Positions 1 through 64,000 are shown, counted from the first letter of the stretch. The stretch is DNA of 64,000 nt from an uncultured Candidatus Saccharibacteria bacterium (GCA_964610055.1 CAZSUC010000001.1:588977-652976); one strand, 5' to 3'. Numbers and translations: made by a program. The notes: generated by a model from the sequence alone, not told the origin.

Positions 1-1
1 A

Positions 2-307
2 GAAATAGTCGTTCTTCCTCACCGCTCCGCCACCCAATCAGCCATCGCCGCCTTAGCCATAGCCGCAGCTAAACCGATTATCGCATCCCGTACCGGCGCC
101 ATCCCTGAATTATTAGAAGATAATCGCACTGCCATCCTAACTAAGCCTAATGACCCCGAATCGCTTGCTAGTGCTATCAAGCAGCTCCTTAATAACCCTC
201 TCAAACAAAAAACTCTGCGCCTGAATGCCTTCCAAGACTCTCGCGAACGTTTATCTTGGAATAAAGTCAGCCAAAAATATATTGATCTTTACTCTTCCTT
301 ATTATGA
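2..307 (+). CDS. Glycosyltransferase family 4-like protein, C-terminal fragment (5' end outside window)
   Basis: The open frame from the window edge reads ...AKPIIASRTGAIPELLEDNRTAILTKPNDPESLASAIKQLL..., the typical GT4 C-terminal pattern. The stop overlaps the next ATG (TTATGA at 302-307). Confidence 0.55.
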   Translation, partial: EIVVLPHRSATQSAIAALAIAAAKPIIASRTGAIPELLEDNRTAILTKPNDPESLASAIKQLLNNPLKQKTLRLNAFQDSRERLSWNKVSQKYIDLYSSLL

Positions 308-1221
308 TTCCTGGTCTCTCTATAATCATTCCCACTTACAATCGGTCCCTATATTTAAACCGCCTACTTAACGCACTTACTGCTCAGTCATTGCGCCCAA
401 ATCAAATAATTATCGTGGATGACCACTCGTCCGACGACACGAAGAAAGTTGTAATTAGTCTGCAAGAAAAATTTCCCGAAATACAATATGCCCTTAATCA
501 GGGCCACTACCAACGAGACGGCAAAAAAACTGGCCTTGCGCTAGCCAACCAACCTTACCTTGGATTTTTAGACGACGACATTATTATTGAAGACCAGGAT
601 TTTATAAAAAAATTATTACCTTACCTAAAACCTGACCGCCTTATCCAAGCCAAGGTTATTCTTGAAAACCTTGGTTATCAAAACGTCCTTCAAACAAACT
701 GGCGTGACCATATTGCTCACCGCCCCTATCCAATCCTAGAACTAATTACCGGACGTTTTCACGCCGGCTCTCGCCCTCGATTTACATTTCCAACAATCGA
801 ATTCGGCATCTTCGTTCACAAAAACCATGCCCCTCATTTAATTGACGACAATCTCATTAAGGACGCTTACGGAGAAAGTTACGCTTCTTCAATTAAGCTT
901 TTCCAAAAAGGAATCCCCACCCTCCTCGTACCAGAGCTTGTCATCCGCCACCCCGGTGCCCCCTCTGGAGGGTCAAGTCGGTTTAACCGTATGTCTATGT
1001 TAAAAAACTTTACTGAATTCCATGAAGGTTACTTCTATAACATGATTTACATCCATAGCCGCTACCTACCAGCATGGATATGTCTCTGGCTGCCGTTTTA
1101 CTTGATAAAATCACTGATCGCTCTTGCGGTTAATCACAACTTATCCGGCTGGTACTCTTATGCCATCATACCCATCTCAAAATCCTTATTCCGAAACTTC
1201 TTTCGAAGGCACTATGTCTAA
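304..1221 (+). CDS. Glycosyltransferase family 2
   Basis: N-terminal LSIIIPTYNRSLYLNRLL...IIIVDDHSSDDT matches the GT2 (GT-A, DxD-type) signature. 305-aa ORF. Confidence 0.8.
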   Translation: MIPGLSIIIPTYNRSLYLNRLLNALTAQSLRPNQIIIVDDHSSDDTKKVVISLQEKFPEIQYALNQGHYQRDGKKTGLALANQPYLGFLDDDIIIEDQDFIKKLLPYLKPDRLIQAKVILENLGYQNVLQTNWRDHIAHRPYPILELITGRFHAGSRPRFTFPTIEFGIFVHKNHAPHLIDDNLIKDAYGESYASSIKLFQKGIPTLLVPELVIRHPGAPSGGSSRFNRMSMLKNFTEFHEGYFYNMIYIHSRYLPAWICLWLPFYLIKSLIALAVNHNLSGWYSYAIIPISKSLFRNFFRRHYV

Positions 1222-2278
1222 CCAACCCTCTCTTCACTTCTTTGCATGGGTCGGCGAATCATCCGGCGGAGCCGCTAAAATAGTTTACGACCTCGCCCTC
1301 ACCGCTTCTCAAAAAGGCTTTTTAGTCACTCTAGGGGTTTTTAAAAAAAATCCTGAATATTCCCTACCCCAAATCGTTATTCCTATACCCGCCTTTGTAC
1401 CTTCGTCATTTAAGTCTTTACTTGCTTCCTTTGTCTTCCAAATCATCCATGCTCACCGCTTCCACATCGTATATGCCCATACCCTCGGTTTCTGGAAAAA
1501 TAACCACAACAAACTCTTCGTCCATGATGCGGCCGACCTAGACGAAAAATACCGCCAAATTCCCGACCAAGTCCACCGCTTGGCTTACAGTTTTTGGTCA
1601 TGGCTTTACCTAAATACCTGCCTGCGGCAAGCCGACACAGTTTTTGCGGCCACCCAAAAATTTTATGCATATTTGCAAAAACATAACATTGACACTGAAC
1701 GTATTCTTCTTAGCGGATCATACTTTGACCAAAATATTTTTCACTTCTCACCCTGCTCGCACCCCCGGCAGCCTTTTAAAATACTCTTTGTCGGCCGGCC
1801 TGATGATCCTGCCAAAAACTTCGTCTATTTGCGCCAACACCTTTACAAAGTTCCTCATCTCCAACTAACAGTCATCGGAGGAACTAAGTCATATAAAGAC
1901 CATAACTTCCGTTTCCTGGCCGCCTCCTCACCCCAAACCGTAGCCAAACACATGCACGCTTCGCATTTATTTATTCTTCCCTCAATATCTGAGGGTTTTC
2001 CGCTAGTCCTGTTAGAAGCACTTGCTTCTGGACTACCATGCTTAGCCTCTGCCGCTTCAATCCCAGCCGAACTGTCACATATAAACTCGCTCCACGTCTT
2101 TGATATCACTACCACTCCTCTACCTGCAATTCAAAACATCATGGACAACTATCCTTCTATTACCAAGCCCCCGGCCGTTCTCGCTCAGTTCCATAAAGAC
2201 CGAATCCTCAATCTGGAATGCCACGCTATCCTCCACTCTTTTGACACCGACCCACTGCCCAATAATACCAACTTTTAG
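1214..2278 (+). CDS. Glycosyltransferase family 4
   Basis: C-terminal PSISEGFPLVLLEALASGLPCLAS is the GT4 E-x7-E region. The start is moved to ATG 1214 (MSNQPSLHFF...), which overlaps the upstream stop by 8 nt. Confidence 0.8.
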   Translation: MSNQPSLHFFAWVGESSGGAAKIVYDLALTASQKGFLVTLGVFKKNPEYSLPQIVIPIPAFVPSSFKSLLASFVFQIIHAHRFHIVYAHTLGFWKNNHNKLFVHDAADLDEKYRQIPDQVHRLAYSFWSWLYLNTCLRQADTVFAATQKFYAYLQKHNIDTERILLSGSYFDQNIFHFSPCSHPRQPFKILFVGRPDDPAKNFVYLRQHLYKVPHLQLTVIGGTKSYKDHNFRFLAASSPQTVAKHMHASHLFILPSISEGFPLVLLEALASGLPCLASAASIPAELSHINSLHVFDITTTPLPAIQNIMDNYPSITKPPAVLAQFHKDRILNLECHAILHSFDTDPLPNNTNF

Positions 2279-3038
2279 GCATTAACCCAGTTACCAGAAT
2301 TTCTCGAAAATATACCGGTATATTACTCGCCCATCCAGGATAATCTTTACGATATTGGTATGCCGCCGTTAAGAATAACCAGTACTGGCGCATTTTATGC
2401 TTTCCTGAAACTGTCCGAGTACTTACCCGATGCGACATGCCACACATACTTAAATTACATAGCCTATATTCCGTCCCAATCCTTAACCACAGCTCATAAT
2501 CCTGAGCATACTGTCTTTTTTCGTCATACCCTCCTAACCGCTGTAACGCTTCTCGCCTTACACAAACACTTGCGTGACCAAATGGGTTCTCACGTAGCAT
2601 TATTTTGCGAATTTCCGCATCTTGCTCCGGCATTCTTAACTGGTATAAGGCATTTCCCTTATCGTCTATCACCTGATACTGAGTTCCACATACCCCCAGC
2701 TTCGGATCCGCTTCAAATACTCGCACTTGTTCCTCTAACTTAGCCAGACTAATCCAAACATCATCGTCATCAATCCTAGCAATATATTTCCCTTGTGACC
2801 GGCTAATACCTACGTTTAACGATCTAGTTAAACCTAATCTCTTTTGGTTCACGACAATCTTAATTCGATTATCACCGATACTCTTTACCACATCAGCCGT
2901 ACCATCGTCTGAACCATCATCAATCACAATTAGCTCCCAGTCTAACAACGACTGTTCTTGCACGCTCTTAATTGCGTCGCGGATCCGATTCGCCCCATTA
3001 TAGGTCGCTAAAACCACCGAAACGATCGGTTCCCCCAT
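2226..3038 (-). CDS. Glycosyltransferase family 2
   Basis: VSVVLATYNGANRIRDAIKSVQEQSLLDWELIVIDDGSDDGT is a GT2 signature. Confidence 0.85.
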   Translation of the reverse strand: MGEPIVSVVLATYNGANRIRDAIKSVQEQSLLDWELIVIDDGSDDGTADVVKSIGDNRIKIVVNQKRLGLTRSLNVGISRSQGKYIARIDDDDVWISLAKLEEQVRVFEADPKLGVCGTQYQVIDDKGNALYQLRMPEQDAEIRKIMLRENPFGHASVCVRREALQRLGGYDEKRQYAQDYELWLRIGTEYRLCNLSMCGMSHRVSTRTVSGKHKMRQYWLFLTAAYQYRKDYPGWASNIPVYFREILVTGLMPKSWYYWAVGRCQKSGG

Positions 3039-3039
3039 A

Positions 3040-3984
3040 TTAAGCGTTTATGTTAGAGCGATACCAATCCAACGATTTCTTCAACCCATGTTCAAAATCT
3101 ATCTTTGGTTCATATCCTAAGTCGCGCTTAGCTTTACGTATGTCGGCTCGCGTACCTAAAATATCTCCGGCCCGCTTCGGAAGCCTCTTAACTTCCGGAT
3201 CAACTTTTAACAACTCTTTAAGATTTTGCAACAATTCATTAATGCTAGTTGTTTGGCCCATACCGATATTATATGCTTCTCCGCTCCGAACTTTTAAACT
3301 AGTTGCCGCTTTTAAGTTAGCCTGTACTACATTTGCCACATATGTAAAATCGCGACTTTGACGCCCGTGCCAATGCACCTCTACCGGTTCACCAGTTAGC
3401 AACGCCTGGGTCATAAGAGGAATTACAGCCGCATACGCCGAATCCGGTCTCTGGCGCGGACCAAATACGTTAAAATAACGTAAGCACACGGTTTCTAATC
3501 CATACAAATCACTAAATAGACGTGCATAATACTCCCCGGTCAGCTTACTAAGTGCATACGGAGACTCCGGATGCGTAGGCATTTTTTCGTTATTTAAATT
3601 GGCCTTAAGAGAACCATACACAGAAGAAGATGAAGCTAATACTACTCTCTTCACCCCCGCTTCTTTTGCACCTAACAAAACTTGCAGTGTGCCACCGATA
3701 TTCACTTCGTTCGTATCCCAAGGATCTTCCACTGACCGCTGCACTGCTCGCAACGCCGCCTGGTGCAACACATAATCCACTCTCTTCATTGCCCGATTAA
3801 CTACTAACGGATCTGTAACCGATCCTTCAAAAACCGTAATTTTATCCCGAACCAAATCTAAATTTTCTTGTCTACCGGTAATAAAATTATCCAAAACTGC
3901 TACTTTGTGACGACGCTTGACCAGCTCCGTCACAATATGTGAACCAATAAATCCCGCCCCACCCGTGACTAGATAATACGCCAT
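3040..3984 (-). CDS. NAD-dependent sugar-nucleotide epimerase/dehydratase (extended SDR)
   Basis: Carries LVTGGAGFIGSH (Rossmann GxxGxxG) and the YALSK catalytic YxxxK motif. 314 aa. Confidence 0.85.
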   Translation of the reverse strand: MAYYLVTGGAGFIGSHIVTELVKRRHKVAVLDNFITGRQENLDLVRDKITVFEGSVTDPLVVNRAMKRVDYVLHQAALRAVQRSVEDPWDTNEVNIGGTLQVLLGAKEAGVKRVVLASSSSVYGSLKANLNNEKMPTHPESPYALSKLTGEYYARLFSDLYGLETVCLRYFNVFGPRQRPDSAYAAVIPLMTQALLTGEPVEVHWHGRQSRDFTYVANVVQANLKAATSLKVRSGEAYNIGMGQTTSINELLQNLKELLKVDPEVKRLPKRAGDILGTRADIRKAKRDLGYEPKIDFEHGLKKSLDWYRSNINA

Positions 3985-4028
3985 AATCGTGCTTTAGTGA
4001 TTATACCCACACAATAAGGGCAATTCCT

Positions 4029-5003
4029 ATGAAACGCAAAGTTTGGATTCCATACGACTGGGCCGAAATCGGCGGCCCGTCTTCTTTTTTATCATCCTTT
4101 AAATCAGGACTGGTAAACTTTGGTTTTTCTGTTTCAGCCCGACCTAACATATCTTTTGACACGCTGTTTATTATGTCCGCCTGTCCGTTATCTTATGTTA
4201 TCCTTGCAAAACTGCTAAGACGACGCATTGTTCAACGCCTTGACGGCGTTTATCACCCTGGCCTCCCGGGCCGAAACGGCCGCCTTTATTGGTTTAAAAA
4301 TTTACGCGCCCAAATCATCCATAATTACCTAGCAAATCATATTATTTACCAAAGTCAATTCAGCCAAAAGGCTTGTCATCTTCTTTTAGGAAAACCTAGC
4401 GGCCAAACTTCAATCATCTATAATGCCATCGCCTATAAATTTCCAGCACGCGCCCCAATTAGTCGTAAAAATATCCGCCTCATTACTTTTGCTAATTGGC
4501 GCCGCTTAGACCAAATCGATCCCATTATTAAAGTAATATCATTACTACCAGACAATTTTACCTTGGACATAGCCGGCCCTGCCTCCCCCTCCTTACAATC
4601 AGTTCTAACTCAAGCCAAATCGCACTCCCGCATTACCTACTTAAGCAAGATACCCCATGAAGAACTACTCTTGCGTCTCAATCAATACGACATTTTTCTA
4701 TTCTCCGACCAATCAGCCTGTCCTCACAGCGTCCTAGAAGCTCTTGCTGCCGGCCTCCCTGTCGTCGCTTTTGATCGCGGTGCCTCTGCCGAGCTTGTTC
4801 AAACTGGACAAACCGGCGAAATTATCCCTCTGCCTCCTCATAACCCTTTTAAAGATAGCTACCAATTTTCTGACCAGGATATTAGTGCATTTACTCACGC
4901 TATAACCAAAACTGCCAATAATCTCGTCGAATACCAAAAACACACATCTGAACACCAAACTGGCTACCATGATATGCTTCAAGCATACGCCAATCTACTT
5001 TAA
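4029..5003 (+). CDS. Glycosyltransferase family 4-like
   Basis: The C-terminal region reads HSVLEALAAGLPVVAFDRGASAELVQTGQTGEII. Confidence 0.75.
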   Translation: MKRKVWIPYDWAEIGGPSSFLSSFKSGLVNFGFSVSARPNISFDTLFIMSACPLSYVILAKLLRRRIVQRLDGVYHPGLPGRNGRLYWFKNLRAQIIHNYLANHIIYQSQFSQKACHLLLGKPSGQTSIIYNAIAYKFPARAPISRKNIRLITFANWRRLDQIDPIIKVISLLPDNFTLDIAGPASPSLQSVLTQAKSHSRITYLSKIPHEELLLRLNQYDIFLFSDQSACPHSVLEALAAGLPVVAFDRGASAELVQTGQTGEIIPLPPHNPFKDSYQFSDQDISAFTHAITKTANNLVEYQKHTSEHQTGYHDMLQAYANLL

Positions 5004-5014
5004 CCCTGCTCTCT

Positions 5015-5674
5015 ATGCCTGTTATCTCACTATTGCTTCTTAAACTTCAAAAATCATCTTGGCGTCTCGTTATATTGCGCCACCTGCTTGACTACGATAA
5101 CCATCTGCGCCGTTGGATTACTTTCTTTGCCATGGAAAAAGGTATCCACCCGAAACACCGCCTAACTCGCTACCACGATTTTTTTCTGGACCACATCTCT
5201 GCTAACCAATCCGTCTTAGACGTTGGCTGTGGCGCAGGCTACCTCGCCTATGATATTGCTTCTAAATCCGTCTCTATTACCGGAATCGATATTAACCCGG
5301 TTTCCATCAAACACGCCCGCCGAAATTCGCTCCCAAATATTAAATTCATTGTCGGCGACGCCACCGTTTATACCTTTCCGAACACATTTGACGTTTTAGT
5401 GTTAAGTAACGTTCTTGAACACATTCAAAACCGTCCTGAATTTCTGAAAAAACTAAAACACTTAGCCCCTAAAATTCTTATCCGCGTACCCATGATTGAC
5501 CGTGATTGGACAGTACCACTAAAAAAAGAAATGAACCTCGAATACTGCTTAGATCCTACTCATGAAATCGAATACACTGAATCCATATTCCGCCAAGAAA
5601 TGGCCGCCGCCAAACTATGTGTACAAGAGCTAAGTATTCGTTGGGGAGAAATATACGCTGTTGTCACTGCCTGA
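5015..5674 (+). CDS. Class I SAM-dependent methyltransferase
   Basis: Motif I is VLDVGCGAGYLAYDIA, and the downstream VLVLSNVLEHI segment fits the family. The exact start is uncertain. Confidence 0.75.
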   Translation: MPVISLLLLKLQKSSWRLVILRHLLDYDNHLRRWITFFAMEKGIHPKHRLTRYHDFFLDHISANQSVLDVGCGAGYLAYDIASKSVSITGIDINPVSIKHARRNSLPNIKFIVGDATVYTFPNTFDVLVLSNVLEHIQNRPEFLKKLKHLAPKILIRVPMIDRDWTVPLKKEMNLEYCLDPTHEIEYTESIFRQEMAAAKLCVQELSIRWGEIYAVVTA

Positions 5675-5675
5675 C

Positions 5676-6470
5676 ATGAAAAAATATTACGACCGACAAC
5701 ACCACCGACTGGTTTATCTACATACTCAGGCCAACTCTTCATTTTGGGATAACCAGTGGCAATCCCCCCGTCTTAAAGAAAAAATTCTAGCTGACAGTCG
5801 TAATCCTTTCTATGTACACATCACTCGACGTTATCTACCAGTCATAAATCCCGCCCCTAAAATTTTAGAAGGTGGCTGCGGGCAAGGAGCAGTCGTACTC
5901 AGCCTCCTCCAAGCCGGATATAAATCTGAAGGAATAGACTTTGCTCATAAAACTATCACCAAAGTAAACCAAATTTTCCCTAACCTGCCCCTTCAAACCG
6001 GCGACGTCACAAAACTACCTTATTCCTCCAACTACTTTGACGGTTACTGGTCATTAGGAGTAATTGAGCACGATTACAATGGATTTACTGCCCTAATTCA
6101 CGAAGCCCACCGCGTTCTCAAATCAAATGGATACCTTTTTCTCACTTTCCCCTACATGTCATTTACCCGAAAAACTAAAGCCGCTTTAGGCTTGTACCCC
6201 GACTGGCACGCCTCATCAACCAACCTCAGTAATTTTTACCAATTTGCCTTAGACCACCTGCAAACTTTAAACGAAATTACAAAATTTGGTTTTGTAGTTA
6301 AAGCAGGGAATCCAATCGATGGATATAAAGGCTTCCAGGAAGAAATACCCATCTCCCAACCCCTGATCAAATTAATTAAACGGCTCCCGCGTCCGCTGCC
6401 GTACGCCCTCTCTACCCTCCTCACGCCAGTTAGCGGACATATTTACCTTGCCGTCTTTCAAAAACAATAA
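5676..6470 (+). CDS. Class I SAM-dependent methyltransferase
   Basis: Motif I is ILEGGCGQGAVVLSLL, and GVIEHDYNG is also present. ATG 5676 lies 1 nt after the upstream TGA, which makes it more plausible than 5661. Confidence 0.75.
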   Translation: MKKYYDRQHHRLVYLHTQANSSFWDNQWQSPRLKEKILADSRNPFYVHITRRYLPVINPAPKILEGGCGQGAVVLSLLQAGYKSEGIDFAHKTITKVNQIFPNLPLQTGDVTKLPYSSNYFDGYWSLGVIEHDYNGFTALIHEAHRVLKSNGYLFLTFPYMSFTRKTKAALGLYPDWHASSTNLSNFYQFALDHLQTLNEITKFGFVVKAGNPIDGYKGFQEEIPISQPLIKLIKRLPRPLPYALSTLLTPVSGHIYLAVFQKQ

Positions 6471-7493
6471 TTACTTCTTAGAAACAATAGTCTTCCCCAT
6501 ACTCTTTTCCGTATCTAATTTGCCATAACGAACATGAAAATTATCTGCAATATAGCCTAAAACGTCTTTGCGTTCTTGTACGCCTTGGATTGTATCGAGC
6601 CCCGCTCCCTCGCCCAAAATGTAATCAAATACCAAAATACCATTATCTTCTAACGCCTCATGCATTCGTTTAACTGTATCCAGCGGCCTATTCAAATGTT
6701 CAAACACAGTCATACAATAAATCACTTCTACTTTTCCTTCTGTTTTTAACTGGAATTCATCCGCCGGATCTAATACCAGCGGAAACACATTCTGATTACA
6801 TCCCAACTTATACGCTCCAAAATGAAATGCTAGCGTCGCAATATCACTAATAAATATTAACCCTTGTCTGCTTTTAGGCCAAAATTCCAACAACGTGGTA
6901 GTAATTGGAGCAGTCCCGCACCCGAATTCTAAACTCTTAGCTGGCCAACGCGGCGCTACTTGTCCCATCAAATTTAATAATGCTAATTCATTAGCACGCG
7001 ACTCCTTGTAAACCAAGTGTAGCAACTGGTACAAAACTTCTGGCTGCTGCCAAGCGCTTAAATGCTGCTCCGCCCCCGCCGCTCCCGGTACGTTGCTTTG
7101 TTGAAACTTCAATCGATACCAACTACGCAAAAAGTATAAATCCTCTGGCCCCCACAACGGTCTTCCTCCCAACACCTGGGACCAGTAGCGCTGAAAGACT
7201 TCAAACCAAGACTGATCCAATCCAGTTCTCCGCCACCAATGCCACGCATAATTCCTAGCTCTTAACGGCAACCAGCTAGTTCTATACACTTTATGAAATG
7301 GGTCTTTCAACCAATCATCAGATACATCTTCTCGATTTTCCGGCGGATATTGCGCGTATAGCTCAGATACATTCACTTGCATATTTCCATACCCATCCTT
7401 ATCTAAATCTATATTCTCATTACTCAACATCTGATATATTGTGCACGAGATGACCATACCTGCCAATAGCAAACCAATTAGATTTTTTCCCAT
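6471..7493 (-). CDS. Membrane-anchored class I SAM-dependent methyltransferase
   Basis: Motif I is LEFGCGTAPITTTL, followed by CMTVFEHLNRP, with an N-terminal hydrophobic helix GLLLAGMVISC. The ORF is open up to 7571 and start choice (7493, 7457 or 7430) is uncertain. Confidence 0.7.
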   Translation of the reverse strand: MGKNLIGLLLAGMVISCTIYQMLSNENIDLDKDGYGNMQVNVSELYAQYPPENREDVSDDWLKDPFHKVYRTSWLPLRARNYAWHWWRRTGLDQSWFEVFQRYWSQVLGGRPLWGPEDLYFLRSWYRLKFQQSNVPGAAGAEQHLSAWQQPEVLYQLLHLVYKESRANELALLNLMGQVAPRWPAKSLEFGCGTAPITTTLLEFWPKSRQGLIFISDIATLAFHFGAYKLGCNQNVFPLVLDPADEFQLKTEGKVEVIYCMTVFEHLNRPLDTVKRMHEALEDNGILVFDYILGEGAGLDTIQGVQERKDVLGYIADNFHVRYGKLDTEKSMGKTIVSKK

Positions 7494-8460
7494 TGCCGAC
7501 ACCGCTAGTGGCTGGTATCCTGACCGAGCCTTACAAGAATTTAAACAAGCCTCCTCCCTAAAGCTTGTCACTTCCCCTCACCAAGCAGACCTAATTTGGA
7601 TATTCTCTTACTACTTATCTCTTAATCCAATTTTGTCATGGCCACACCTGCGCCATCTTCTAAACCAACCACCCCTACGACATAAATCTTTAACACACAC
7701 GCCCGTCATTACTACTATTCACCACCTCTCCCCGCAGAAAAAAAATATCTGGCATCCAATCATAACTAACCTGGAACACATCACCGACTATTGGCATACA
7801 GCCAACCCAACAGGGCACGCGACTATTTCCAGCATCAGCTCAAAACCCATTATAGATTTACCTTATTGGATTGATACCAATCTTTTTCAGCCTTTCACGT
7901 CCAGCCAAAAACAAGCTAATCGCCAAAAGTTAAACATCCCCAAAGACCATTTAATCATTGGTAGTTTTCAACGTGACACTGAAGCAGACGGACAGACCCC
8001 CAAGCTGGACAAAGGTCCCGACATCTTCTGCGATATTATCGCTAAAATCCCGCAACCAGTCTTCGTAGTACTCACAGGAACTCGTCGCCAATATGTGGAA
8101 AAACGCCTAAAATCGGATAATATTCCGTATCTTAATGTTGGACATGTGCCCTATCATGATCTTCCCCGCTTATATTCCATCCTTGACTATTATTTAGTCA
8201 CCGCTCGCCTGGAAGGCGGCCCCCAGTCTATTCTTGAAACTATGGCAACCAATACCCCTATCCTTAGCACCTCGGTTGGTATATCCGGCCTCCTGCACTC
8301 CTCCGCTATTTTCTCGCCGGAATCCTTTACCCCTGATATTCTTCGCGCTGCCAACTCACCTCAAGTCCTTGCTCAACATCTAACTACTGCCACGCAATAT
8401 AGCATACAAAACATTATTCCTCAATACGATCAGGCTTTGGCACAGATATGCACAAACTAA
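7450..8460 (+). CDS. Glycosyltransferase (GT4-like C-terminal half)
   Basis: YLVTARLEGGPQSILETMATNTPILSTSVGISGLL resembles the GT4 nucleotide-sugar binding region. The start is uncertain (GTG 7441 or ATG 7450) and lies in a 5'-5' overlap with the divergent gene. Confidence 0.65.
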   Translation: MTIPANSKPIRFFPIADTASGWYPDRALQEFKQASSLKLVTSPHQADLIWIFSYYLSLNPILSWPHLRHLLNQPPLRHKSLTHTPVITTIHHLSPQKKNIWHPIITNLEHITDYWHTANPTGHATISSISSKPIIDLPYWIDTNLFQPFTSSQKQANRQKLNIPKDHLIIGSFQRDTEADGQTPKLDKGPDIFCDIIAKIPQPVFVVLTGTRRQYVEKRLKSDNIPYLNVGHVPYHDLPRLYSILDYYLVTARLEGGPQSILETMATNTPILSTSVGISGLLHSSAIFSPESFTPDILRAANSPQVLAQHLTTATQYSIQNIIPQYDQALAQICTN

Positions 8461-8461
8461 T

Positions 8462-9490
8462 ATGAAAGTCTTCATCTCCTTCCCAATCAAATCAAAGCCT
8501 TACGGCGGCGCTAACCAGTTTCTCAAAGCACTCGCAAAAGAGTTAGAACTCACTGGTCACTTAACTCAAAATCCTGCAACCGCAAGTTTAATTCTCGTGA
8601 ACGCCAACCCCAGTAACTTATTCTTTGGATTTCAACAAGCCTTACGCTTAAAACAAAAGTTCCCTAAAGCCAAAGCCGTTATCCGAATTGATGGTCCCAT
8701 TTCACTTATTCGGAATACCAATAACACTATTGATAAACTAATTTTAAAACTATCTAACCTCTTGGCCGACGGCATCATCTTTCAGTCGCAATGGAGCGCA
8801 AAACATAACAATCTCATCCAGACGGTCACCGCCCCTAACCAAACCGTTATCTACAACTCTCCGGATAATCACATATTTTATCCGCAAACTACCCCAAAGC
8901 CCAGCGTCCCTATCCGCCTAATTGCGACTTCTTGGTCCTCTAATCAAAACAAAGGTTTTAGCTTTTATAGGTACATTGACGAAAACCTTGATTTTAAAAA
9001 ATACCACATGACCTTTGTCGGCAATGCGCCACAAACTTTTAAAAACATCCGCTGTCTTTCCCCCGTCTCATCTCACCAACTCGCCCACTTACTTAGACAA
9101 AGCGACATCTATATTACCGCTTCACGTAACGACCCCTGTTCTAACGCTCTGATTGAAGCCCTGGCGTGTGGACTTCCCGTCGTTGCCATGAATAGCGGCG
9201 GACACCCTGAGCTAGTCCAAAACAACGGGGAACTATTCCAAAACGCAACCGAATTGATCCAGAAGCTAGAAACAATCATATCTAATTATTCTCGTTACAC
9301 AAATCGGCTTCCCCGCTTTTCAATTAGTCAGACTGCCACCGAATACGTCCAATTTTTTAGCCAGGTTTCAGACACCCGCTCCACTCCCATCTCTATCTGG
9401 AAAACTTATCGTTACTGGACAATATGGGGAAAATACTATTTCACTACCATGGTTTCCGGAATCATCTCCCGAATCTTCCCTAAAATATAG
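8462..9490 (+). CDS. Glycosyltransferase family 4-like
   Basis: Contains ITASRNDPCSNALIEALACGLPVVAMNSGGHPELVQNNGELF. 342 aa. Confidence 0.75.
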   Translation: MKVFISFPIKSKPYGGANQFLKALAKELELTGHLTQNPATASLILVNANPSNLFFGFQQALRLKQKFPKAKAVIRIDGPISLIRNTNNTIDKLILKLSNLLADGIIFQSQWSAKHNNLIQTVTAPNQTVIYNSPDNHIFYPQTTPKPSVPIRLIATSWSSNQNKGFSFYRYIDENLDFKKYHMTFVGNAPQTFKNIRCLSPVSSHQLAHLLRQSDIYITASRNDPCSNALIEALACGLPVVAMNSGGHPELVQNNGELFQNATELIQKLETIISNYSRYTNRLPRFSISQTATEYVQFFSQVSDTRSTPISIWKTYRYWTIWGKYYFTTMVSGIISRIFPKI

Positions 9491-10374
9491 GCTGCTGCTG
9501 CTCCGTTCTGTATGTGTTGCGCAAAGTATTTTAGATTGTTTTTCGATATTTCCTTGCGCAGATTCTCATTTTTCAGGACAGGTAAGAGCTGTTTAGCTTT
9601 CTCCTTATACTCACTGCATAATTTTAAAAACTCAGCAGATGACAAATTATTATCCATTGGTCCGCTTAAACCTAAGCTCATATAGTGCACTTTCTCCCGT
9701 ACCGGAACGGGCCAATATGAAGTCGGCGGATAATCAGCTATCACTGCTCCTCCAATACTCATATAGTCAACCATTTTGAAACTTAGACAATCATGCTTCC
9801 CCCTGTTAAGAACATTCCAACGTGCCTGGCGGTTCCATTCTAACCATTTTTGATACGGCACATTATCTTTCCAAACTTCCACCCCGGCTTCTTGTAATAG
9901 CGCCCCCCACCGCTCATGGTCATCTGAACTCACCATCCTAGCCGCCAGTTTCATTTTAAAAGGCAAAGACGCTAACGCCAAAAACATCGCCACCTTATGA
10001 GGACGCCCCCCTGAAATACCAGCCAGCCAAACAATATCATACACCCTACGTTCCTCAGGAAGCGGGAAATTATGCTTTGTTAATGTCGTGCCGTTTAAAG
10101 ACGACACAACATTAACAGGATACAACCTCCCCGGATCATAATTAGCCTTAAAGTAAACCCCGTACTGCGTCGGATCATAGGCTAAGTCCTTACTATCTGT
10201 CACATCAATCAAATACGGTAAACCGTTGACTTCAAAATAAAAACAAGCCGGAGGACTACTTTTACGCAGATGTGGATATAGCTTAATTTTTCCCTGTCGC
10301 GCCAATTGCCAAAACTGCCGCATCCAAAAGCGGCTATACCAATGCGGATTAATTGCTATCGTGACTTTATCCAT
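9436..10374 (-). CDS. Hypothetical protein, possible glycosyltransferase (candidate nonulosonate transferase)
   Basis: 312-aa ORF with no motif I can name. The C-terminal part (HDCLSFKMVDYMSIGGAVIADYP) loosely resembles exostosin/GT-B-type acceptor-side folds. It lies immediately downstream of pseI. Confidence 0.55.
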   Translation of the reverse strand: MDKVTIAINPHWYSRFWMRQFWQLARQGKIKLYPHLRKSSPPACFYFEVNGLPYLIDVTDSKDLAYDPTQYGVYFKANYDPGRLYPVNVVSSLNGTTLTKHNFPLPEERRVYDIVWLAGISGGRPHKVAMFLALASLPFKMKLAARMVSSDDHERWGALLQEAGVEVWKDNVPYQKWLEWNRQARWNVLNRGKHDCLSFKMVDYMSIGGAVIADYPPTSYWPVPVREKVHYMSLGLSGPMDNNLSSAEFLKLCSEYKEKAKQLLPVLKNENLRKEISKNNLKYFAQHIQNGAAAAYILGKIREMIPETMVVK

Positions 10375-16550: not shown

Positions 16551-17762
16551 ATGTCAAATAATATAGGTTTTGTCATATCCCGTTCTGCCGAATTAAAAGT
16601 ATATGCCCCCCTTGCCAGCGCTGCTTTAGCCAAAGGATATAAAGTTTTTTTAATATGCGGCCCAAACCCTGAACAATCATGGCCCAATACACCTACATAC
16701 AAACCCATTAAAGCCAACTTAAGGTTTCAGGATGACCAGCACATTCAATATATTCCGTATTCTGACTACAAAGATGCACACCACCAAATTATAACGCACC
16801 GGATTAAAAATATTTTTACCCTTGGCTTCCGTCCCGGTTCTTTGACTTATTATCTTGGCCACCAAATCTCACAAAAATTCCGTCTCTACGGGCTCCAGTC
16901 TTATGCCGATTACTTGGCTACTCCTCCGGAATTAATGCAAAAGTTTGACGCTTTTTTCACTTTCAGCCCAATCATGAAAGACATATATCAAAAAGTTTAT
17001 CCCAAAGCGTCTATGGCAAGTCTAAACAGCGTCTTTCAAGCTGTCGGCAATCCCATGACTGAAAACATTAACACACTTCAACAACACTCTGCCGATATCC
17101 GCTCAAAATACAGCCTGCCTAGCAACAAAAAGATTGTATTATTGTTATCCTTTAACATCGGTAACGAATTATGGAGAAAATATGTTTTTGGTTCACCCAA
17201 CTGGCTATATTCTCTTGCTGCCCTAATCTACTTTCACGAATACTCTAAGATACCTTTAATCTGGTCTCAACCCAAGCTCAAGCGTATCCTAGCCGAACTT
17301 AAGCAATGGACCCGACAAAACAACGCGATTCTTGTCACCAAAACCCGGTCCAAACAAAACGAGCCCTCTTACCTCAAACGCACAACTGATTATCTTATTA
17401 CAGACACCGGATCTTGGCTGCCCTATCCTGCCCTGGAACTCATGTCTATTTCTGATTTGGTGGTCAGCTTTAACAGCACCGGAATCATTGAATCATCCGC
17501 ACTAGGCAAATTCATGCTTTCTATAAAATTAACTGACGATAAAACCACGTCAATTGGAGACACGTTTACTCGTACAATTTATCGCCCCTCAAACGTTAGT
17601 CAAACTGTGGACTACTATGACTTTCAAAAATTTCTATCATCACACGCCTTATCAGACTTTACCAAACAATCATCTGAATTTGCGCTCTATAACAACACCT
17701 TTATTAGCAAAAATACCACCCCCGCATCGCATCAAATTCTTGATTACTTAAATCAACATTAA
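16551..17762 (+). CDS. GT-B-fold protein, possible PseG/SpsG-like nucleotide-sugar hydrolase or transferase
   Basis: 403 aa. The C-terminal LMSISDLVVSFNSTGIIESSALGKFMLSI resembles the MurG/PseG-type (Glyco_tran_28_C-like) segment. It is divergent from pseB. The functional call is weak. Confidence 0.5.
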   Translation: MSNNIGFVISRSAELKVYAPLASAALAKGYKVFLICGPNPEQSWPNTPTYKPIKANLRFQDDQHIQYIPYSDYKDAHHQIITHRIKNIFTLGFRPGSLTYYLGHQISQKFRLYGLQSYADYLATPPELMQKFDAFFTFSPIMKDIYQKVYPKASMASLNSVFQAVGNPMTENINTLQQHSADIRSKYSLPSNKKIVLLLSFNIGNELWRKYVFGSPNWLYSLAALIYFHEYSKIPLIWSQPKLKRILAELKQWTRQNNAILVTKTRSKQNEPSYLKRTTDYLITDTGSWLPYPALELMSISDLVVSFNSTGIIESSALGKFMLSIKLTDDKTTSIGDTFTRTIYRPSNVSQTVDYYDFQKFLSSHALSDFTKQSSEFALYNNTFISKNTTPASHQILDYLNQH

Positions 17763-17765
17763 GAC

Positions 17766-19655
17766 TTATTCACCGAATGACATCTGCTGTGTTAACAACA
17801 TCTGATAGTACTGCCCTCTTTTTCGTAGTAGCTCTTCCGACGAACCAAACTCAATTATTCTACCCTTACTTATAACTGCTATAATATCAGCCTGAGTTAC
17901 CGTCGACAGCCGATGAGCGATTATAATTGTAGTTTTTTTATGGCTCAAAGCGTTGATTGCCTGCTGCACCTCGTGCTCTGACTTACTGTCCAGAGCACTT
18001 GTTGCTTCATCAAAGACCATTACCTGTGGATCACGTACCAGAGCCCGTGCAATTGCTATCCTCTGTCTCTGCCCTCCAGACAACCGCACTCCTCTATCAC
18101 CAATCACCGTGTCATATCCATCCGCTAAATGACTGATAAACCCATGCGCGTTAGCCGCAACCGCCGCCTTCCGAATCTTGTCTATAGGACATTCTCGTGA
18201 TGCACCATAAGCAATGTTCTGCCCGACGGTATCATGAAACAAAAACACGTCCTGACTCACCACTCCAAACAGATTACGATAACTCGCCTTTTCAAAATCT
18301 TTCACATCCACCCCATCAACCAAAATCCGGCCTTTTGTTGGATAATATAATCCTAAAATTATATCTACCAAAGTACTTTTCCCTGAACCACTTTCTCCTA
18401 CTAAAGCCAAAGTCTTTCCAGTCGGCAAGAACAGATCTATATCTCTCAGTACTAAGCCATCTCCATAGCTAAAACTCACCTTCTCAAACTTTATCCCATG
18501 CTTCACCACACTAACCCGCTTTACGCCTTTATCAGTTTCTTGAGGCTCATTCAAAAATGAATATACTCTCTCAGTTGAGGCCATGCCTTCTTTTATGCTA
18601 AACCAAACGCCTACTAAGATATTCACGGGCTGCTGGAACCTGGTTAGCACGACAAAAAACAGAATCAGCTCCGGTACCGACAACTCATTCCTTATAATCA
18701 AAACTCCCCCTAAAAACACCACGGCCCCCGATAACAACGCGCTTGTAATTTCTTTAAAACGGTTTGGCAATGCTTTGCTTGCTGCATTCAGAGCCTCTAA
18801 TCGACGCCATTCTTGTAAATACTGCCTCCAACGCGTATTTTCGTCTTGTGCACGGTTAAATATTTTCACCACCTTAATGCCACTTAACGTCTCCTGTATT
18901 ACAGATGTAACTGCCGCCTGCACAACCAATATTTTTCGTTTATTGCTTTTCATCCACTCGCCTATTCCAATGGAAAATACACTGATCAAAATCCCGACTG
19001 GAATCATAATTAAAACTAGCTTTGCATTAATGACTAATAAAACGACAAGTAAGCTCGCCGAAACAAAAAAATTAATCACTATGTTGGCCACACTTCCGGA
19101 AACCATCTGAATCACCCCTTCGATATCATTAGTCATGCGAGACAAAATCGTTCCACTCCGCTCCTTTACAAAATACTGGTATGGCAGCTTAACTAGATGC
19201 TCATAACACGTTGCTCTTAGTAAAGCGTTTCCGCCCGTTTGCACACGAATGAACAAGAAATCCACTCCAAAGCCAATTATTGCCGACAAAACAACCAGAC
19301 TAATTATAAACCCCACTAGCCGTATCAACTGAAACGACTTCGTCCCTTCCCCAGCAACCACCACATAAAAGTTATTAACAACACTTTTCACCCGACTCTC
19401 CCATTCGGACACTTTTTTAAAAGCCAAGGGCTCACCATACATTTCCGGATCACTACTACTACCAAGCCCGCTCACTTCTTCAGGAAACAAAGTTTGCACT
19501 ACAGGCAAAAAAGAGTAAGTGGCTACACTGCTAACTAAACTCAACATGATCGCCAAAACACTCGCCACCACTAACACCCGCCACTCCGGCAGAATATACC
19601 GTAATGCCCAGCCATATAAACAGATTTGTTTACGCTTGTCCATCCACTGCCACAC
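17766..19655 (-). CDS. ABC exporter, fused permease/ATPase (MsbA-like)
   Basis: Six-TM N-terminal half. Walker A GESGSGKST, ABC signature LSGGQRQR and Walker B VMVFDEATSALD are present. Confidence 0.9.
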   Translation of the reverse strand: MWQWMDKRKQICLYGWALRYILPEWRVLVVASVLAIMLSLVSSVATYSFLPVVQTLFPEEVSGLGSSSDPEMYGEPLAFKKVSEWESRVKSVVNNFYVVVAGEGTKSFQLIRLVGFIISLVVLSAIIGFGVDFLFIRVQTGGNALLRATCYEHLVKLPYQYFVKERSGTILSRMTNDIEGVIQMVSGSVANIVINFFVSASLLVVLLVINAKLVLIMIPVGILISVFSIGIGEWMKSNKRKILVVQAAVTSVIQETLSGIKVVKIFNRAQDENTRWRQYLQEWRRLEALNAASKALPNRFKEITSALLSGAVVFLGGVLIIRNELSVPELILFFVVLTRFQQPVNILVGVWFSIKEGMASTERVYSFLNEPQETDKGVKRVSVVKHGIKFEKVSFSYGDGLVLRDIDLFLPTGKTLALVGESGSGKSTLVDIILGLYYPTKGRILVDGVDVKDFEKASYRNLFGVVSQDVFLFHDTVGQNIAYGASRECPIDKIRKAAVAANAHGFISHLADGYDTVIGDRGVRLSGGQRQRIAIARALVRDPQVMVFDEATSALDSKSEHEVQQAINALSHKKTTIIIAHRLSTVTQADIIAVISKGRIIEFGSSEELLRKRGQYYQMLLTQQMSFGE

Positions 19656-45441: not shown

Positions 45442-45452
45442 CGAATAAACAC

Positions 45453-57384: not shown

Positions 57385-57485
57385 CACACATGAAGGAACA
57401 ACGCAACAGGGTAAAGAGAGCTATGCGCATGGCACCAGCCGCTCGGTCTCAACTTAAACCACACGCATAGCCCACACGTAGTTTT

Positions 57486-57513
57486 ATCATATCCCGCCTA
57501 CTCCAGATGTCAA
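57486..57513 (-). promoter_or_regulatory. Sigma70-like promoter (proximal)
   Basis: On the minus strand, TTGACA (57513-57508), a 16-nt spacer and TATGAT (57491-57486). Confidence 0.45.
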
Positions 57514-57519
57514 CCAAAG

Positions 57520-57557
57520 AAAAAAACCGCCGAAAAGCGATTGTGTGGCACGGCGGG
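57520..57557 (-). terminator. Intrinsic terminator-like element (distal), with competing or pseudoknotted helix
   Basis: The minus strand forms CCGCCG-(18 nt)-CGGCGG followed by U7. The loop contains GCCACAC, which pairs with the upstream GUGUGGC (57562-57568). Confidence 0.45.
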
Positions 57558-57644
57558 AGAATATCGCCACACAAAGAGCTTTTCGACGGCAACCGGGAAA
57601 GGGTAATCTCGCATCTCTTGCAAATTTGAGTCACCATTCTCAAG

Positions 57645-57662
57645 CTAGCCCGGCGGAGTCAT
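57645..57662 (-). other. Mini-ORF MTPPG-stop with consensus SD
   Basis: AAAGGAGG, a 6-nt spacer, then ATG ACT CCG CCG GGC TAG on the minus strand. Confidence 0.3.
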
Positions 57663-57846
57663 GTACGACCTCCTTTCTAAAATGAGATCAGCCGACAGAC
57701 AACGCAAGGGGCCCTACCAACTTCAAAAAAAGAAAGAAAAAGAGAACAATATAACCGCCCGGAGGGGTTCATGAGAACCTACTTGGGGCACTAGCAGTCC
57801 CCTACAACACCCTCCAGACGGCTCGCACGACAGGTGCTGTTAAGTT

Positions 57847-57875
57847 CTTATACTCTTACCCGCTTTTTTTGTCAA
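57847..57875 (-). promoter_or_regulatory. Sigma70-like promoter (distal)
   Basis: On the minus strand, TTGACA (57875-57870), a 17-nt spacer and TATAAG (57852-57847). It lies just downstream of the murJ stop. Confidence 0.45.
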
Positions 57876-57896
57876 CGGTCAAATTATCGTCTACCC

Positions 57897-62252: not shown

Positions 62253-63644
62253 ATGTCACAGTTTCTCCCTCTTGGTCAGCATGATCTACCACCCGCCCTA
62301 TCTTTCCGCCGCTTGATTGGCCCCAGCTTTATTATCTTAGGTCTCGGCTTAGGTAGCGGCGAGGTCATTCTTTGGCCTTATCTTTCTAGTAACTATGGTC
62401 TCGGTATTGTTTGGGCTATTGTCGTCGGTATTACCATGCAGTTTTTCATCAACTTAGAAGTCGAACGATACGCTTTAATTTATGGTGAAAGCATTTTTGT
62501 CGGTTTCGCACGCATGCTGCGTTATCTTCCCGCCTGGTTTATTCTCACCACCTTCTTTGGTTTCGGCTGGCCCGGTATCGGTTTAGCCGGCGCAACTTTA
62601 CTTGCTCATGCTTTCGGTATTTCTAATGTAAACATCGCGGCCATCGCCATCTTTCTCCTTATCGGACTTATCTTGTCTTTTGGACGCGTTCTTTACCAAA
62701 CCGTTGAAAATATTCAAAAATGGCTGATCGGCTTAGGTGTCCCGGCAATTATTCTGCTCACTCTTTACCTATCTTCTCGAGCTGACTTTGTTGTTCTCGC
62801 CCAAGGTTTAATTGGCCACGGTCACAATTTTTGGTTCTTACCCGACGGCTTAGCAATTGCTGCTTTTTTAGGCGCTCTGGCTTTCTCTGGGGCAGGCGGA
62901 AATCTTAATCTGGCTCAATCTTTTTACGTGCGCGACAAAGGTTACGGCATGGGAAAATATTCTGCACGAATTACTAATCTGCTCCACGAAAATCAAGATG
63001 ACGCTCACTTTCACCTCACCGGCTCCACTTTCCCTCTGTCTTCTTCTAACCTCAGTCGCTTTCATCGTTGGTGGCGCATCATGAATCTCGAACACTTTTT
63101 AATTTTTTGGGTTCTCGGTTTGATTACAATGTTAACCCTAGCTTTATTAGCTTACGTCACCGCTTACGGCACACCTGGCAATGAGCAAAATATTACTTTC
63201 GTTCTCAATGAAGCCACTGCCATCAGCCAACTCACTCTTCCTGTTATCAGCCTGTTATTCCTGATCATAACTGGCATCATGCTTTCCGCCACCCAGATGA
63301 CTGTGCTTGATTCCACTAGTCGTATCATCGCCGAAAATTGGCTGCTCTTTACGCGCAAAGCTAAAGGCAAAATGGCACACCTGTATTATTTTATTCTTTG
63401 GGCTCAAATCGCTTTTGGAATCCTGGTTTTCCTGGCTGGATTTAACGAACCGAAACAATTAATTATTACTTCCGCTGTCATTAATGCTTTCACCATGTTT
63501 ATTTACACCGGACTTTTACTTTGGTTAAATAATAGTCGCTTGCCTCAACCTCTTAAACCTCGTGCCTGGCGCAATGTCGCTCTCGCTATTACTTTTCTCT
63601 TTTTCGGTGTTTTCTGCGTTTTGTATCTCATTGATAAATTTTAA
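62253..63644 (+). CDS. Nramp-related polytopic transporter
   Basis: 463 aa with about 11 TM helices. The N-terminal GLGLGSGEVILWPYLSSNYGLGIVWAIVVGITMQFFINLEVERYALIYGESI parallels the first Nramp/MntH segments, although the canonical DPGN is absent. Confidence 0.6.
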   Translation: MSQFLPLGQHDLPPALSFRRLIGPSFIILGLGLGSGEVILWPYLSSNYGLGIVWAIVVGITMQFFINLEVERYALIYGESIFVGFARMLRYLPAWFILTTFFGFGWPGIGLAGATLLAHAFGISNVNIAAIAIFLLIGLILSFGRVLYQTVENIQKWLIGLGVPAIILLTLYLSSRADFVVLAQGLIGHGHNFWFLPDGLAIAAFLGALAFSGAGGNLNLAQSFYVRDKGYGMGKYSARITNLLHENQDDAHFHLTGSTFPLSSSNLSRFHRWWRIMNLEHFLIFWVLGLITMLTLALLAYVTAYGTPGNEQNITFVLNEATAISQLTLPVISLLFLIITGIMLSATQMTVLDSTSRIIAENWLLFTRKAKGKMAHLYYFILWAQIAFGILVFLAGFNEPKQLIITSAVINAFTMFIYTGLLLWLNNSRLPQPLKPRAWRNVALAITFLFFGVFCVLYLIDKF

Positions 63645-63653
63645 TTGAAATAT

Positions 63654-63677
63654 AAAAGCCGGTGCGCTATGCACCAG
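63654..63677 (-). terminator. Possible intrinsic terminator
   Basis: The minus strand forms CUGGUGC-auagc-GCACCGG (7 bp including one G-U) followed by CUUUUAUAUUU. The U-tract is short. Confidence 0.4.
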
Positions 63678-63697
63678 CATTGCCGTTACGGCGGCAT

Positions 63698-64000
63698 TTA
63701 ATCAAGGGAACCAAAGAGAGGCTGACAACCAGGCGGAACGATACTATTTAGCGAGTAGCACCCCGCTTCAATGTATGGCAATTGCCCGCACTTCTGTATC
63801 AGACTCACATACAGAATCATTGAAGTCCCCCGTGGAGACCTCAACACAGTGCCCAAAAAATCACGATGCAAGACCGTCTCCTCTGGAAATACCTTAGCCA
63901 GCAAAGAATCCCGCTCTTGCTCTGTCGGCTTCTCTGTCCTTTGAAAATCATCAAGCAAATCAAGAAATTGGGACAATCCCAACGGACACAGCAAAGTATG
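63698..64000 (-). CDS. 3' end of an unidentified ORF running off the window edge
   Basis: The frame is open to position 64000. The first part (…SQFLDLLDDFQRTEKPTEQERDSLLAKVFPEETVLHRDFLG) looks protein-like, while the last ~45 codons do not. The base composition is balanced. Confidence 0.3.
   Translation of the reverse strand, partial: HTLLCPLGLSQFLDLLDDFQRTEKPTEQERDSLLAKVFPEETVLHRDFLGTVLRSPRGTSMILYVSLIQKCGQLPYIEAGCYSLNSIVPPGCQPLFGSLD

Follow-up and report, generated by a model that had tools for sequence, protein, structure and literature searches.

In a 64,000-nucleotide (nt) stretch of bacterial chromosome recorded as from an uncultured Candidatus (Ca.) Saccharibacteria bacterium (GCA_964610055.1, CAZSUC010000001.1:588977-652976), here termed the window and numbered from its first letter, one strand has roughly two C for every G, irrespective of the direction of the genes. 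We consider it probable, at roughly 0.8, that this composition records an extreme strand-specific substitution pressure on the genome of a bacterium from the candidate phyla radiation (CPR, or Patescibacteria) related to Ca. Andersenbacteria, of the type represented by Ca. Chazhemtobacterium aquaticus Ch65. The phenomenon is already published for Ch65, and the window constitutes a phylogenetically separate example of something rare. What is added here is the independence of the bias from gene orientation at four-fold degenerate sites, an argument from purine and pyrimidine content about the substitutions involved, an effect on protein composition, and a patchy distribution among relatives.

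Magnitude and uniformity of the asymmetry

The + strand of the window comprises 9571 G, 18380 C, 17262 A and 18787 T (14.95%, 28.7%, 27.0% and 29.4%, respectively; G+C 43.7%), corresponding to a GC skew of -0.315 and an AT skew of -0.042, and purines make up 41.9% of all sites on this C-rich strand. The skew is negative in every 2-kb segment (-0.14 to -0.49), no 300-nt segment has a positive value (mean -0.315, standard deviation 0.10), and the 8.3 kb of left flank available on an identical contig from the Logan assemblies is skewed to an equal degree, with no switch of sign over the 72 kb of window and flank. As a measure of how unusual this is, 154 lepA-bearing loci of at least 4 kb each from other bacteria have a median absolute GC skew of 0.043, a 99th percentile of 0.235 and a maximum of 0.286, the last belonging to a close relative of the window organism. 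Pattern-based scans for lepA in genome and metagenome contigs returned mostly distant relatives (at most 68% and at most 57% identity, respectively), which serve as a background distribution only.

A preliminary description, made from the sequence alone, had characterized the + strand as C-rich and G-poor across genes of both orientations, and the full counts bear this out. Its hand counts over 60-nt lines are exact (9 G and 25 C at 1-60, 8 and 17 at 8521-8580, 10 and 23 at 40201-40260, 11 and 12 at 24001-24060, 17 and 18 at 33961-34020, and 19 and 14 at 57541-57600). Two of its statements need qualification. The YfhO gene, said to be close to balance, is so at 24001-24060 but not over its whole length, where the skew is -0.27 overall and -0.53 at third codon positions; and the - strand genes are indeed G-rich on their coding strand, although at +0.34 their skew is far higher than the "usual" G-richness attributed to them.

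Dependence on the strand and not on gene orientation

The window contains 52 genes, 13 on the + and 39 on the - strand. Pfam matches to GT2, GT4 (in several cases), S-adenosylmethionine (SAM) methyltransferases and YfhO establish the + strand open reading frames (ORFs) as real genes. Read on its own coding strand, third-position GC skew is -0.45 to -0.66 in 13 of 13 + genes and +0.41 to +0.76 in 39 of 39 - genes. Expressed in terms of the + strand, all 52 genes are therefore C-rich at synonymous positions, as are seven genes of the left flank, and the window holds no gene with a discordant third-position skew.

The same pattern is evident at four-fold degenerate sites, where the + strand composition is A 0.195, C 0.340, G 0.081 and T 0.383 in + genes (n=2855) and A 0.235, C 0.379, G 0.085 and T 0.301 in - genes (n=6103). 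The corresponding skews, -0.62 and -0.63, are nearly equal in the two orientations, as the preliminary description's view of the bias as a property of the strand, not of coding, would have it. Purines account for 28-32% of + strand four-fold sites in both orientations (68-72% on the G-rich strand), and these sites also show a modest excess of T on the C-rich strand. When the skew of whole coding sequences is decomposed, the strand component is 0.309 and the orientation component 0.029; at third positions the two are 0.561 and 0.043. A skew that flips with gene orientation, which had been named as the observation that would overturn the original claim, is not what the window displays, and the bias follows the DNA strand and not the direction of the genes.

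The magnitude varies with the class of site: four-fold sites reach -0.62 and third positions about -0.56, compared with -0.35 to -0.48 in short spacers and -0.23 over intergenic DNA as a whole. The bias is thus greatest where constraint is least (larger at four-fold sites than at second positions) and smallest under functional constraint.

Effects on codons, proteins and antisense reading frames

Codon choice differs sharply with strand. CUN codons make up 70% of leucine codons in + genes vs 22% in - genes, and GGG makes up 6% of glycine codons in + genes vs 29% in - genes. The bias also reaches first and second codon positions, with the consequence that proteins encoded on the C-rich strand contain little Gly, Val, Glu, Asp and Met and much Pro, His, Ser, Thr and Phe. 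The depletion of residues with GNN codons (Gly, Ala, Val, Asp and Glu, or G+A+V+D+E) in + gene proteins, which the preliminary description had pointed out, holds within matched families: 21.9% in + genes vs 38.6% in - genes for GT4, 22.0% vs 35.0% for GT2, 25.3% vs 31.8% for methyltransferases, and 23.8% vs 37.3% for large membrane glycosyltransferase-like (GT-C-like) proteins. Among the individual residues, + gene proteins have more His, Pro, Ser, Thr and Phe (in the methyltransferases the gain in Phe is marginal) and less Met and Glu, while Val is much lower in three of the four families and near-equal in the methyltransferases. Against 119 listed orthologues, the window YfhO protein ranks fifth lowest in G+A+V+D+E, third lowest in Val and lowest in Met; lepA, which is highly constrained and lies on the G-rich strand, is not a composition outlier among its orthologues. 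Strand-specific codon and amino-acid usage, with leading- and lagging-strand genes set apart by a replication-strand bias, was reportedly described in Borrelia burgdorferi and other spirochaetes by McInerney in 1998 and by Lafay et al. in 1999, and the window resembles these spirochaetes in having a strand bias strong enough to split genes by both measures.

The EX7E region of the GT4 protein encoded at 8462-9490 (+) reads NDPCSNALIE, and the motif had been read correctly in the preliminary description. Relatives have E-G-F-x-L/S...E at this place, such that the first Glu and the Gly, both residues with GNN codons, are replaced; here the strand bias extends into a catalytic-site motif.

The frequency of stop triplets is 41 per 1000 on the + strand, as against 61 per 1000 on the - strand. 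Thirty open stretches of 100 codons or more lie opposite - genes (6.9 per 10 kb) and one lies opposite + genes (0.6 per 10 kb), a roughly 12-fold higher density of long antisense ORFs on the + strand. The depletion of TAG and TGA on the C-rich strand gives rise to these long spurious frames, and the many antisense ORFs that had been ascribed to the bias are accounted for in this way. The scarcity of stop codons on the C-rich strand also means that ORFs overextend at their 5' ends and that start sites need care. Mechanical ORF starts produce overlaps of up to 130 nt, as between 6471-7571 (-) and 7441-8460 (+), and the start of 1124-2278 (+) presents a similar issue; gene calls on the identical Logan contigs begin further downstream, with products of 319, 336 and 372 amino acids.

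Placement of the organism and distribution of the skew among relatives

The lepA and YfhO proteins of the window are recorded on a 698,565-bp NCBI contig and in Logan assemblies SRR8925775 and SRR8925805. The two Logan assemblies are 100% identical to the window, and there are no polymorphisms among the three assemblies. Named homologues from Ca. Andersenbacteria (Parcubacteria group, Patescibacteria) are 65-71% identical for lepA and 41-49% identical for YfhO, and several of the 120 listed YfhO orthologues bear the name YfhO family protein of Ca. Andersenbacteria. No protein of Ch65 or its order, UBA1400, occurs among the best 120 lepA matches, all of at least 64% identity. Judged from these homologue names, the window organism appears to be a member of the Patescibacteria related to Ca. 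Andersenbacteria and lying outside UBA1400.

High skew is present in some close relatives and absent from others. The nearest relative by lepA (87% identity; ENA) has a GC skew of 0.23. Two further loci have lepA proteins 73-74% identical to the window copy and fall on opposite sides: the syntenic GCA_030698495.1 (L088; 74%) has a skew of 0.29, whereas GCA_016307145.1 (L089; 73%) has 0.08. A GTDB representative genome with 68% lepA identity has a skew of 0.11. In L088, purines make up 66% of four-fold sites on the G-rich strand.

Two more loci, L171 (GCA_964392095.1) and L172 (JGI Ga0118719), were chosen solely for the low G+A+V+D+E content of their YfhO proteins, and the prediction that such proteins would be encoded on the C-rich strand of a highly skewed genome held in both (-0.30 and -0.28, respectively, over 22 kb). 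The skew of these loci is again independent of orientation, third-position values being below zero in + genes and, when read on the coding strand, above zero in - genes, and purines make up 29% of four-fold sites, except in the - genes of L171 (n=219), where the value is 53%. A relative whose YfhO orthologue is high in G+A+V+D+E, represented by a 121-kb contig with both lepA and YfhO, served as a negative control and has ordinary skews of 0.01 and 0.13. In its YfhO locus (L173), third-position skew follows gene orientation. The direction of the genes varies among the high-skew loci: the C-rich strand carries 16 of the 18 called genes in L171 and 13 of the 17 in L172, and the G-rich strand carries every gene in L088.

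The ordinary-skew, low-skew relative on Logan contig SRR29340338_124991 carries, at 486-7303 of locus L174 and upstream of lepA, genes for an apurinic/apyrimidinic (AP) endonuclease, an SRAP abasic-site protein, a Y-family polymerase (IMS) and an S24 peptidase. No counterparts of this repair-gene set were seen in the window, and we regard it as a lead only for the comparison of high- and low-skew genomes.

Comparison with Ch65

The published case of this kind is Ch65 (Microgenomates, order UBA1400), which has a closed genome of 801,504 bp (Kadnikov et al. 2020, PMC7143001). In that report, one strand consists of 14.97% G, 29.83% C, 27.87% A and 27.33% T; the cumulative skew is monotonic round the whole chromosome; 449 genes lie on the C-rich and 389 on the G-rich strand, with the rRNA genes on the former; and the authors proposed near-unidirectional replication while leaving the cause open. 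No analysis of codon positions, four-fold sites, purine content or protein composition was seen in the paper. Ch65 was the one obvious outlier among 17,873 complete genomes (PMC11514846).

The window resembles Ch65 in its near-identical base frequencies, with G+C of about 44%, roughly twice as much C as G and an absolute skew of about 0.3 sustained across 64 kb and the 8.3-kb flank. Both belong to CPR bacteria with genomes below 1 Mb, and in neither case does the way genes are distributed account for the disparity or does a comparable disparity between A and T accompany it. They differ in lineage, the window being related to Andersenbacteria and not UBA1400, and in extent, since the window organism is known here from 72 kb and Ch65 from its whole chromosome. 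In Table 1 of PMC7143001, complete genomes of Ca. Collierbacteria and Ca. Beckwithbacteria also have one strand that is C-rich over the whole chromosome, although more weakly, with skews computed from that table of about -0.135 and -0.155 compared with -0.315 in the window. Our literature searches returned no report of extreme skew in Andersenbacteria and no follow-up on mechanism for Ch65.

Proposed mechanism and alternative explanations

We propose that every weakly constrained site tends to acquire C (and T) on one strand and G (and A) on its complement, irrespective of which of the two is transcribed. The pressure would be a mutational asymmetry tied to the replication or repair of the two strands, and would belong together with the whole-chromosome G/C disparity of Ch65. 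Transitions cannot alter the purine fraction of a strand; since purines make up only 28-32% of four-fold sites on the C-rich strand, deamination of cytosine or adenine alone is excluded, and strand-biased transversions or selection are required. The mutational spectrum would accordingly be expected to include strand-biased transversions, for example the replacement of G by T or of A by C on the C-rich strand, changes that would yield C far in excess of G and T in excess of A on one strand, as is observed. Such substitutions are the signatures of 8-oxoguanine (8-oxoG) in the template and of incorporated 8-oxo-dGTP, and oxidised-guanine lesions may lie behind them.

Several points weigh against this reading. 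The link between the pressure and replication is one that we infer, and no switch corresponding to an origin or terminus occurs in the 72 kb. Genes are not consistently co-oriented with the G-rich strand: of the genes in window and left flank together, the G-rich strand has 40 and the C-rich strand 20, and L171 and L172 reverse this preference. Either strand could thus be the leading one, and the rRNA genes of Ch65 are on its C-rich strand. The transversion spectrum is deduced from equilibrium composition, and selection could contribute. Finally, the placement of the organism derives from the names of lepA and YfhO homologues and not from a phylogeny.

A more specific form of the proposed mechanism, which we advance tentatively as a possibility, is that the chromosome has the architecture of Ch65, with the same strand C-rich throughout as a result of unidirectional or strand-asymmetric replication, for example with an adjacent origin and terminus or with a long-lived displaced strand as in mitochondria. 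The near-identical base frequencies, the small A/T disparity and the lack of a switch in 72 kb fit this picture, as does the absence of a consistent relation between gene orientation and skew across loci, which parallels the 449/389 distribution in Ch65. Apart from the difference in lineage from UBA1400, the difficulty is that unidirectional replication explains a constant sign of the skew, but neither its magnitude nor the purine/pyrimidine asymmetry. The light strand of vertebrate mitochondrial DNA has a GC skew of about -0.3 and is G-poor throughout, across genes of both orientations. The mitochondrial G-poor strand is, however, A-rich, in keeping with deamination transitions, whereas that of the window is T-rich, an asymmetry between purines and pyrimidines.

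Alternatively, the window could display the ordinary replication skew generated by cytosine deamination, merely stronger, with switches at an origin and a terminus outside the window. The indifference of the skew to gene orientation and its evenness over 72 kb fit this view, the G-rich strand does carry two thirds of the genes, and by our own estimate a 72-kb sample of a chromosome of about 0.7 Mb misses both switches some 80% of the time. Deamination, however, produces a strand rich in G+T with a purine fraction of 0.5, whereas the G-rich strand of the window is rich in G+A with purines at 68-72% of four-fold sites, and L171 and L172 carry long envelope operons on the C-rich strand. The size of the effect is a further obstacle: across 185 chromosomes the highest phylum average of replication-associated G skew is 0.096, in spirochaetes, and the strand component of 0.31 in the window is about three times this value (PMC2031905). 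A joint enrichment of G and A on one strand, which differs from the "keto excess" (G+T) seen in Proteobacteria, is shared with the replication-associated "purine excess" of Firmicutes and Fusobacterium (PMC2031905; SkewDB, PMC8941118). The Firmicutes skew, however, arises largely from gene-strand bias and purine-rich coding strands (SkewDB, PMC8941118), and the asymmetry of the window is independent of orientation and several times larger. We therefore judge this explanation unlikely.

Still less probable, in our estimation, is selection on strand composition, for instance through avoidance of G-rich motifs or structures in one of the strands. Selection could produce a purine/pyrimidine shift beyond the reach of transitions and a trait that differs between close relatives, but the bias peaks at the least constrained sites, the pattern of a mutation pressure opposed by selection, and no motif was found to be involved.

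A skew driven by coding, in which G-rich coding strands combine with a majority of genes on the - strand (39 of 52), operates in the L173 locus of an ordinary-skew relative and is very improbable for the window itself, where the 13 Pfam-backed + genes are equally C-rich (-0.45 to -0.66 at third positions, -0.62 at four-fold sites) and the orientation component is 0.03-0.04. Lastly, a sequencing or assembly artefact, or foreign phage or plasmid DNA with rolling-circle replication, is suggested by little beyond the odd composition and one TraG/VirD4-like ATPase gene, and can practically be dismissed given three identical independent assemblies, four other contigs from different samples that share the trait, chromosomal housekeeping and envelope genes syntenic with relatives, and a source contig of 698,565 bp.

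Regions of relaxed skew

In the preliminary description, the bias was said to disappear in five short patches (designated A to E; Table 1) that coincided with structured RNAs or orphan genes. The observed skew was compared with an expectation aware of gene orientation and codon position, with non-coding DNA taken as neutral. The bias is weakened in all five patches but never vanishes: the skew remains negative, at -0.13 to -0.18, and synonymous sites are still biased. Patch A (z 4.0-5.3 over 33.9-34.8 kb, with 4.4-5.3 at 33.9-34.5 kb), 57.5-57.7 kb in patch D (z 5.3) and 63.6-63.8 kb in patch E (z 5.05) are clear outliers in skew, and 39.9-40.1 kb in patch B and 45.3-45.5 kb in patch C are moderate ones (both z 3.7). 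Several stretches within genes that were absent from the original list are as relaxed (61.6-62.5, 20.7-21.0, 25.5-25.9 and 58.5-58.8 kb). Ranking 637 segments by strand-specific 3-mer composition places patch D first, patch A second and patch C ninth, with B and E unremarkable; the patches are thus outliers in skew as supposed, two of them moderately, but in k-mers only A, C and D stand out. Small ORFs or RNA-like elements do occur in each patch, although no Rfam family reaches its gathering threshold anywhere in the window, and permissive Rfam scans returned only noise for patches A and D and for the corresponding L088 spacer.

We interpret the patches as places where function retains G at first and second codon positions and in base-paired RNA; the pressure continues there and the constrained sites resist it. 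Recent horizontal transfer or inversion was also considered as their origin and was rejected, as the patch ORFs carry third-position skews that fit their strand.

The first two of the three small ORFs in patch A (67 and 63 amino acids) are paralogues (34% identity, E 5e-8), each preceded by AGGAGG, and a hairpin with a T-run follows the first near 34141. The three ORFs have third-position skews of -0.29, -0.46 and -0.42, and the abundance of Asp, Glu, Arg and Ala in their proteins makes the first positions G-rich. The third ORF, of 102 amino acids, has no Pfam match in a scan that covered this ORF alone of the three. The three ORFs adjoin the gene for a TraG/VirD4-like coupling-protein ATPase at 34840-36135 (-). 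Patch A may be what is left of a mobile or secretion module, though its synonymous sites are already adapted to the strand.

Patch B lies in a 242-nt spacer upstream of the - strand ORF 38045-39925 and scores 27.4 bits against the cobalamin riboswitch family RF00174, below the gathering score of 31.5 (E 0.005 for the window, 2e-5 for the region). The conserved core aligns (GGGAA..CCGGUG..AAUCCGG..GCUG..CCGCAACUGU), including a stretch like the B12 box, and the minimum-free-energy fold is unexceptional (z -0.5). On the strength of this alignment, patch B may be a divergent member of the cobalamin riboswitches. The ORF that follows encodes an extremely Glu-rich protein of 626 amino acids with no Pfam match, and could be a B12-regulated gene without assigned function in a CPR bacterium.

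The orphan ORF of patch C has no Pfam match and corresponds to a 149-amino-acid gene call on an identical Logan contig (L001). Its skews at the three codon positions (+0.17, -0.04 and +0.41) display a coding-like periodicity.

Patch D, the spacer between murJ and lepA, folds more stably than shuffled sequences on the - strand (z -4.26; + strand z -1.68). A terminator at 57542-57525 is followed by a near-consensus lepA promoter, TTGACA-N16-TATGAT, at 57513-57486, and a further promoter-like TTGACA...TATAAG was seen by eye near 57873-57845. The syntenic L088 spacer (592 nt, 9409-10000, +) is likewise relaxed, with a skew of +0.12 vs +0.29 for the locus, and has a fold z of -5.81. The two spacers share conserved blocks, e.g. 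TTGTTCTCTTTTTCT, and neither matches an Rfam family. Folding and conservation together suggest that an independent structured RNA of about 300 nt lies in the murJ-lepA spacer.

In patch E, the two hairpins follow a convergent gene pair, with fold z values of -2.3 on the - and -3.4 on the + strand. The small ORF has a third-position skew of +0.59 and neutral first and second positions. Logan contig L083 (SRR8925775) ends at 63841 inside this patch, which may reflect a drop in coverage or an assembly break.

Gene content of the window

The window is ordinary chromosomal DNA, devoted mostly to cell-envelope glycosylation and also encoding lepA and murJ (Table 1); ARAGORN finds no tRNA or tmRNA in it. 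In the 304-9490 block, the + genes have third-position skews of -0.47 to -0.66 and encode proteins with 22-25% G+A+V+D+E, and the + genes of the 16551-33930 block have third-position skews of -0.45 to -0.55. The membrane-protein gene at 62253-63644 has an overall skew of only -0.15 because its protein is rich in Gly, Ala and Val. In the long - strand run, for which ORFs and Pfam families were available precomputed from identical Logan contigs, one ORF probably encodes an AAA+ (Clp-like) ATPase, as far as can be read from its sequence, and a DUF4012 protein takes its name from the syntenic L088 orthologue. The PMT_2-like membrane glycosyltransferases at 29665-31620 (-) and 40168-41676 (-) are paralogues (44% identity over 505 amino acids, E 2e-136). 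Altogether, the window encodes nine GT-C-like and YfhO-like proteins on both strands, an unusually large set.

Table 1. Genes, gene groups and relaxed-skew patches of the window
Feature	Position	Strand	Remarks
GT2	304-1221	+	Pfam
GT4	1124-2278	+	Pfam
GT4	4029-5003	+	Pfam
Methyltransferases	5015-5674, 5661-6470	+	Pfam
GT4	7441-8460, 8462-9490	+	Pfam
Genes interleaved in the 304-9490 block	2226-3984, 6471-7571	-	
Genes interleaved with - genes	16551-17762, 19626-21095, 26343-28313, 31660-33930	+	
YfhO-like	23569-26346	+	Pfam YfhO
Run of 23 consecutive genes on the G-rich strand	34840-62218	-	Third-position skew +0.41 to +0.76; includes a TraG-like ATPase, PMT_2-like glycosyltransferases, rml and heptose sugar genes, lepA and murJ
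Membrane-protein gene	62253-63644	+	Skew -0.15; codon positions 1/2/3: +0.07, -0.09, -0.46
Patch A	33931-34839	+	Three small ORFs: 33923-34126, 34285-34476, 34480-34788
Patch B	39957-40105	-	Cobalamin-riboswitch-like
Patch C	45453-45953	-	Orphan ORF with weaker skew; plus 99-nt spacer 45354-45452
Patch D	57388-57896	-	509-nt murJ-lepA spacer; candidate structured RNA of about 300 nt, terminator, lepA promoter
Patch E	63645-64000		Two hairpins directly after 62253-63644; small ORF 63698-63994 (-)

Implications

The asymmetry is exceptional, the only published case of such size being the single outlier among the 17,873 genomes surveyed (PMC11514846), and it has practical consequences. In such genomes, gene-finding programs will report spurious antisense ORFs on the C-rich strand. 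Orthologues carried on opposite strands diverge in composition, and phylogenies and homology searches can be misled; the best orthologue of the window YfhO protein, for example, is 49% identical, vs 87% for lepA (74% for the next). The G/C-balanced patches in such genomes, for their part, offer a cheap means of locating constrained non-coding RNAs and small genes.

As to the broader biology, we put forward as a tentative proposition that the oddity of Ch65 recurs in a second, unrelated CPR lineage, that it switches on or off between close relatives, and that it is of the transversion type. If this is true, the replication or repair of the two strands would have changed in some CPR bacteria in a discrete manner that evolved repeatedly, possibly with whole chromosomes that violate Chargaff's second rule. 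The mixture of high and low skew among close relatives makes the cause approachable by comparative genomics, with replication topology, polymerase usage and the loss of repair pathways as candidates, and the gene content of paired high- and low-skew relatives could then identify it.

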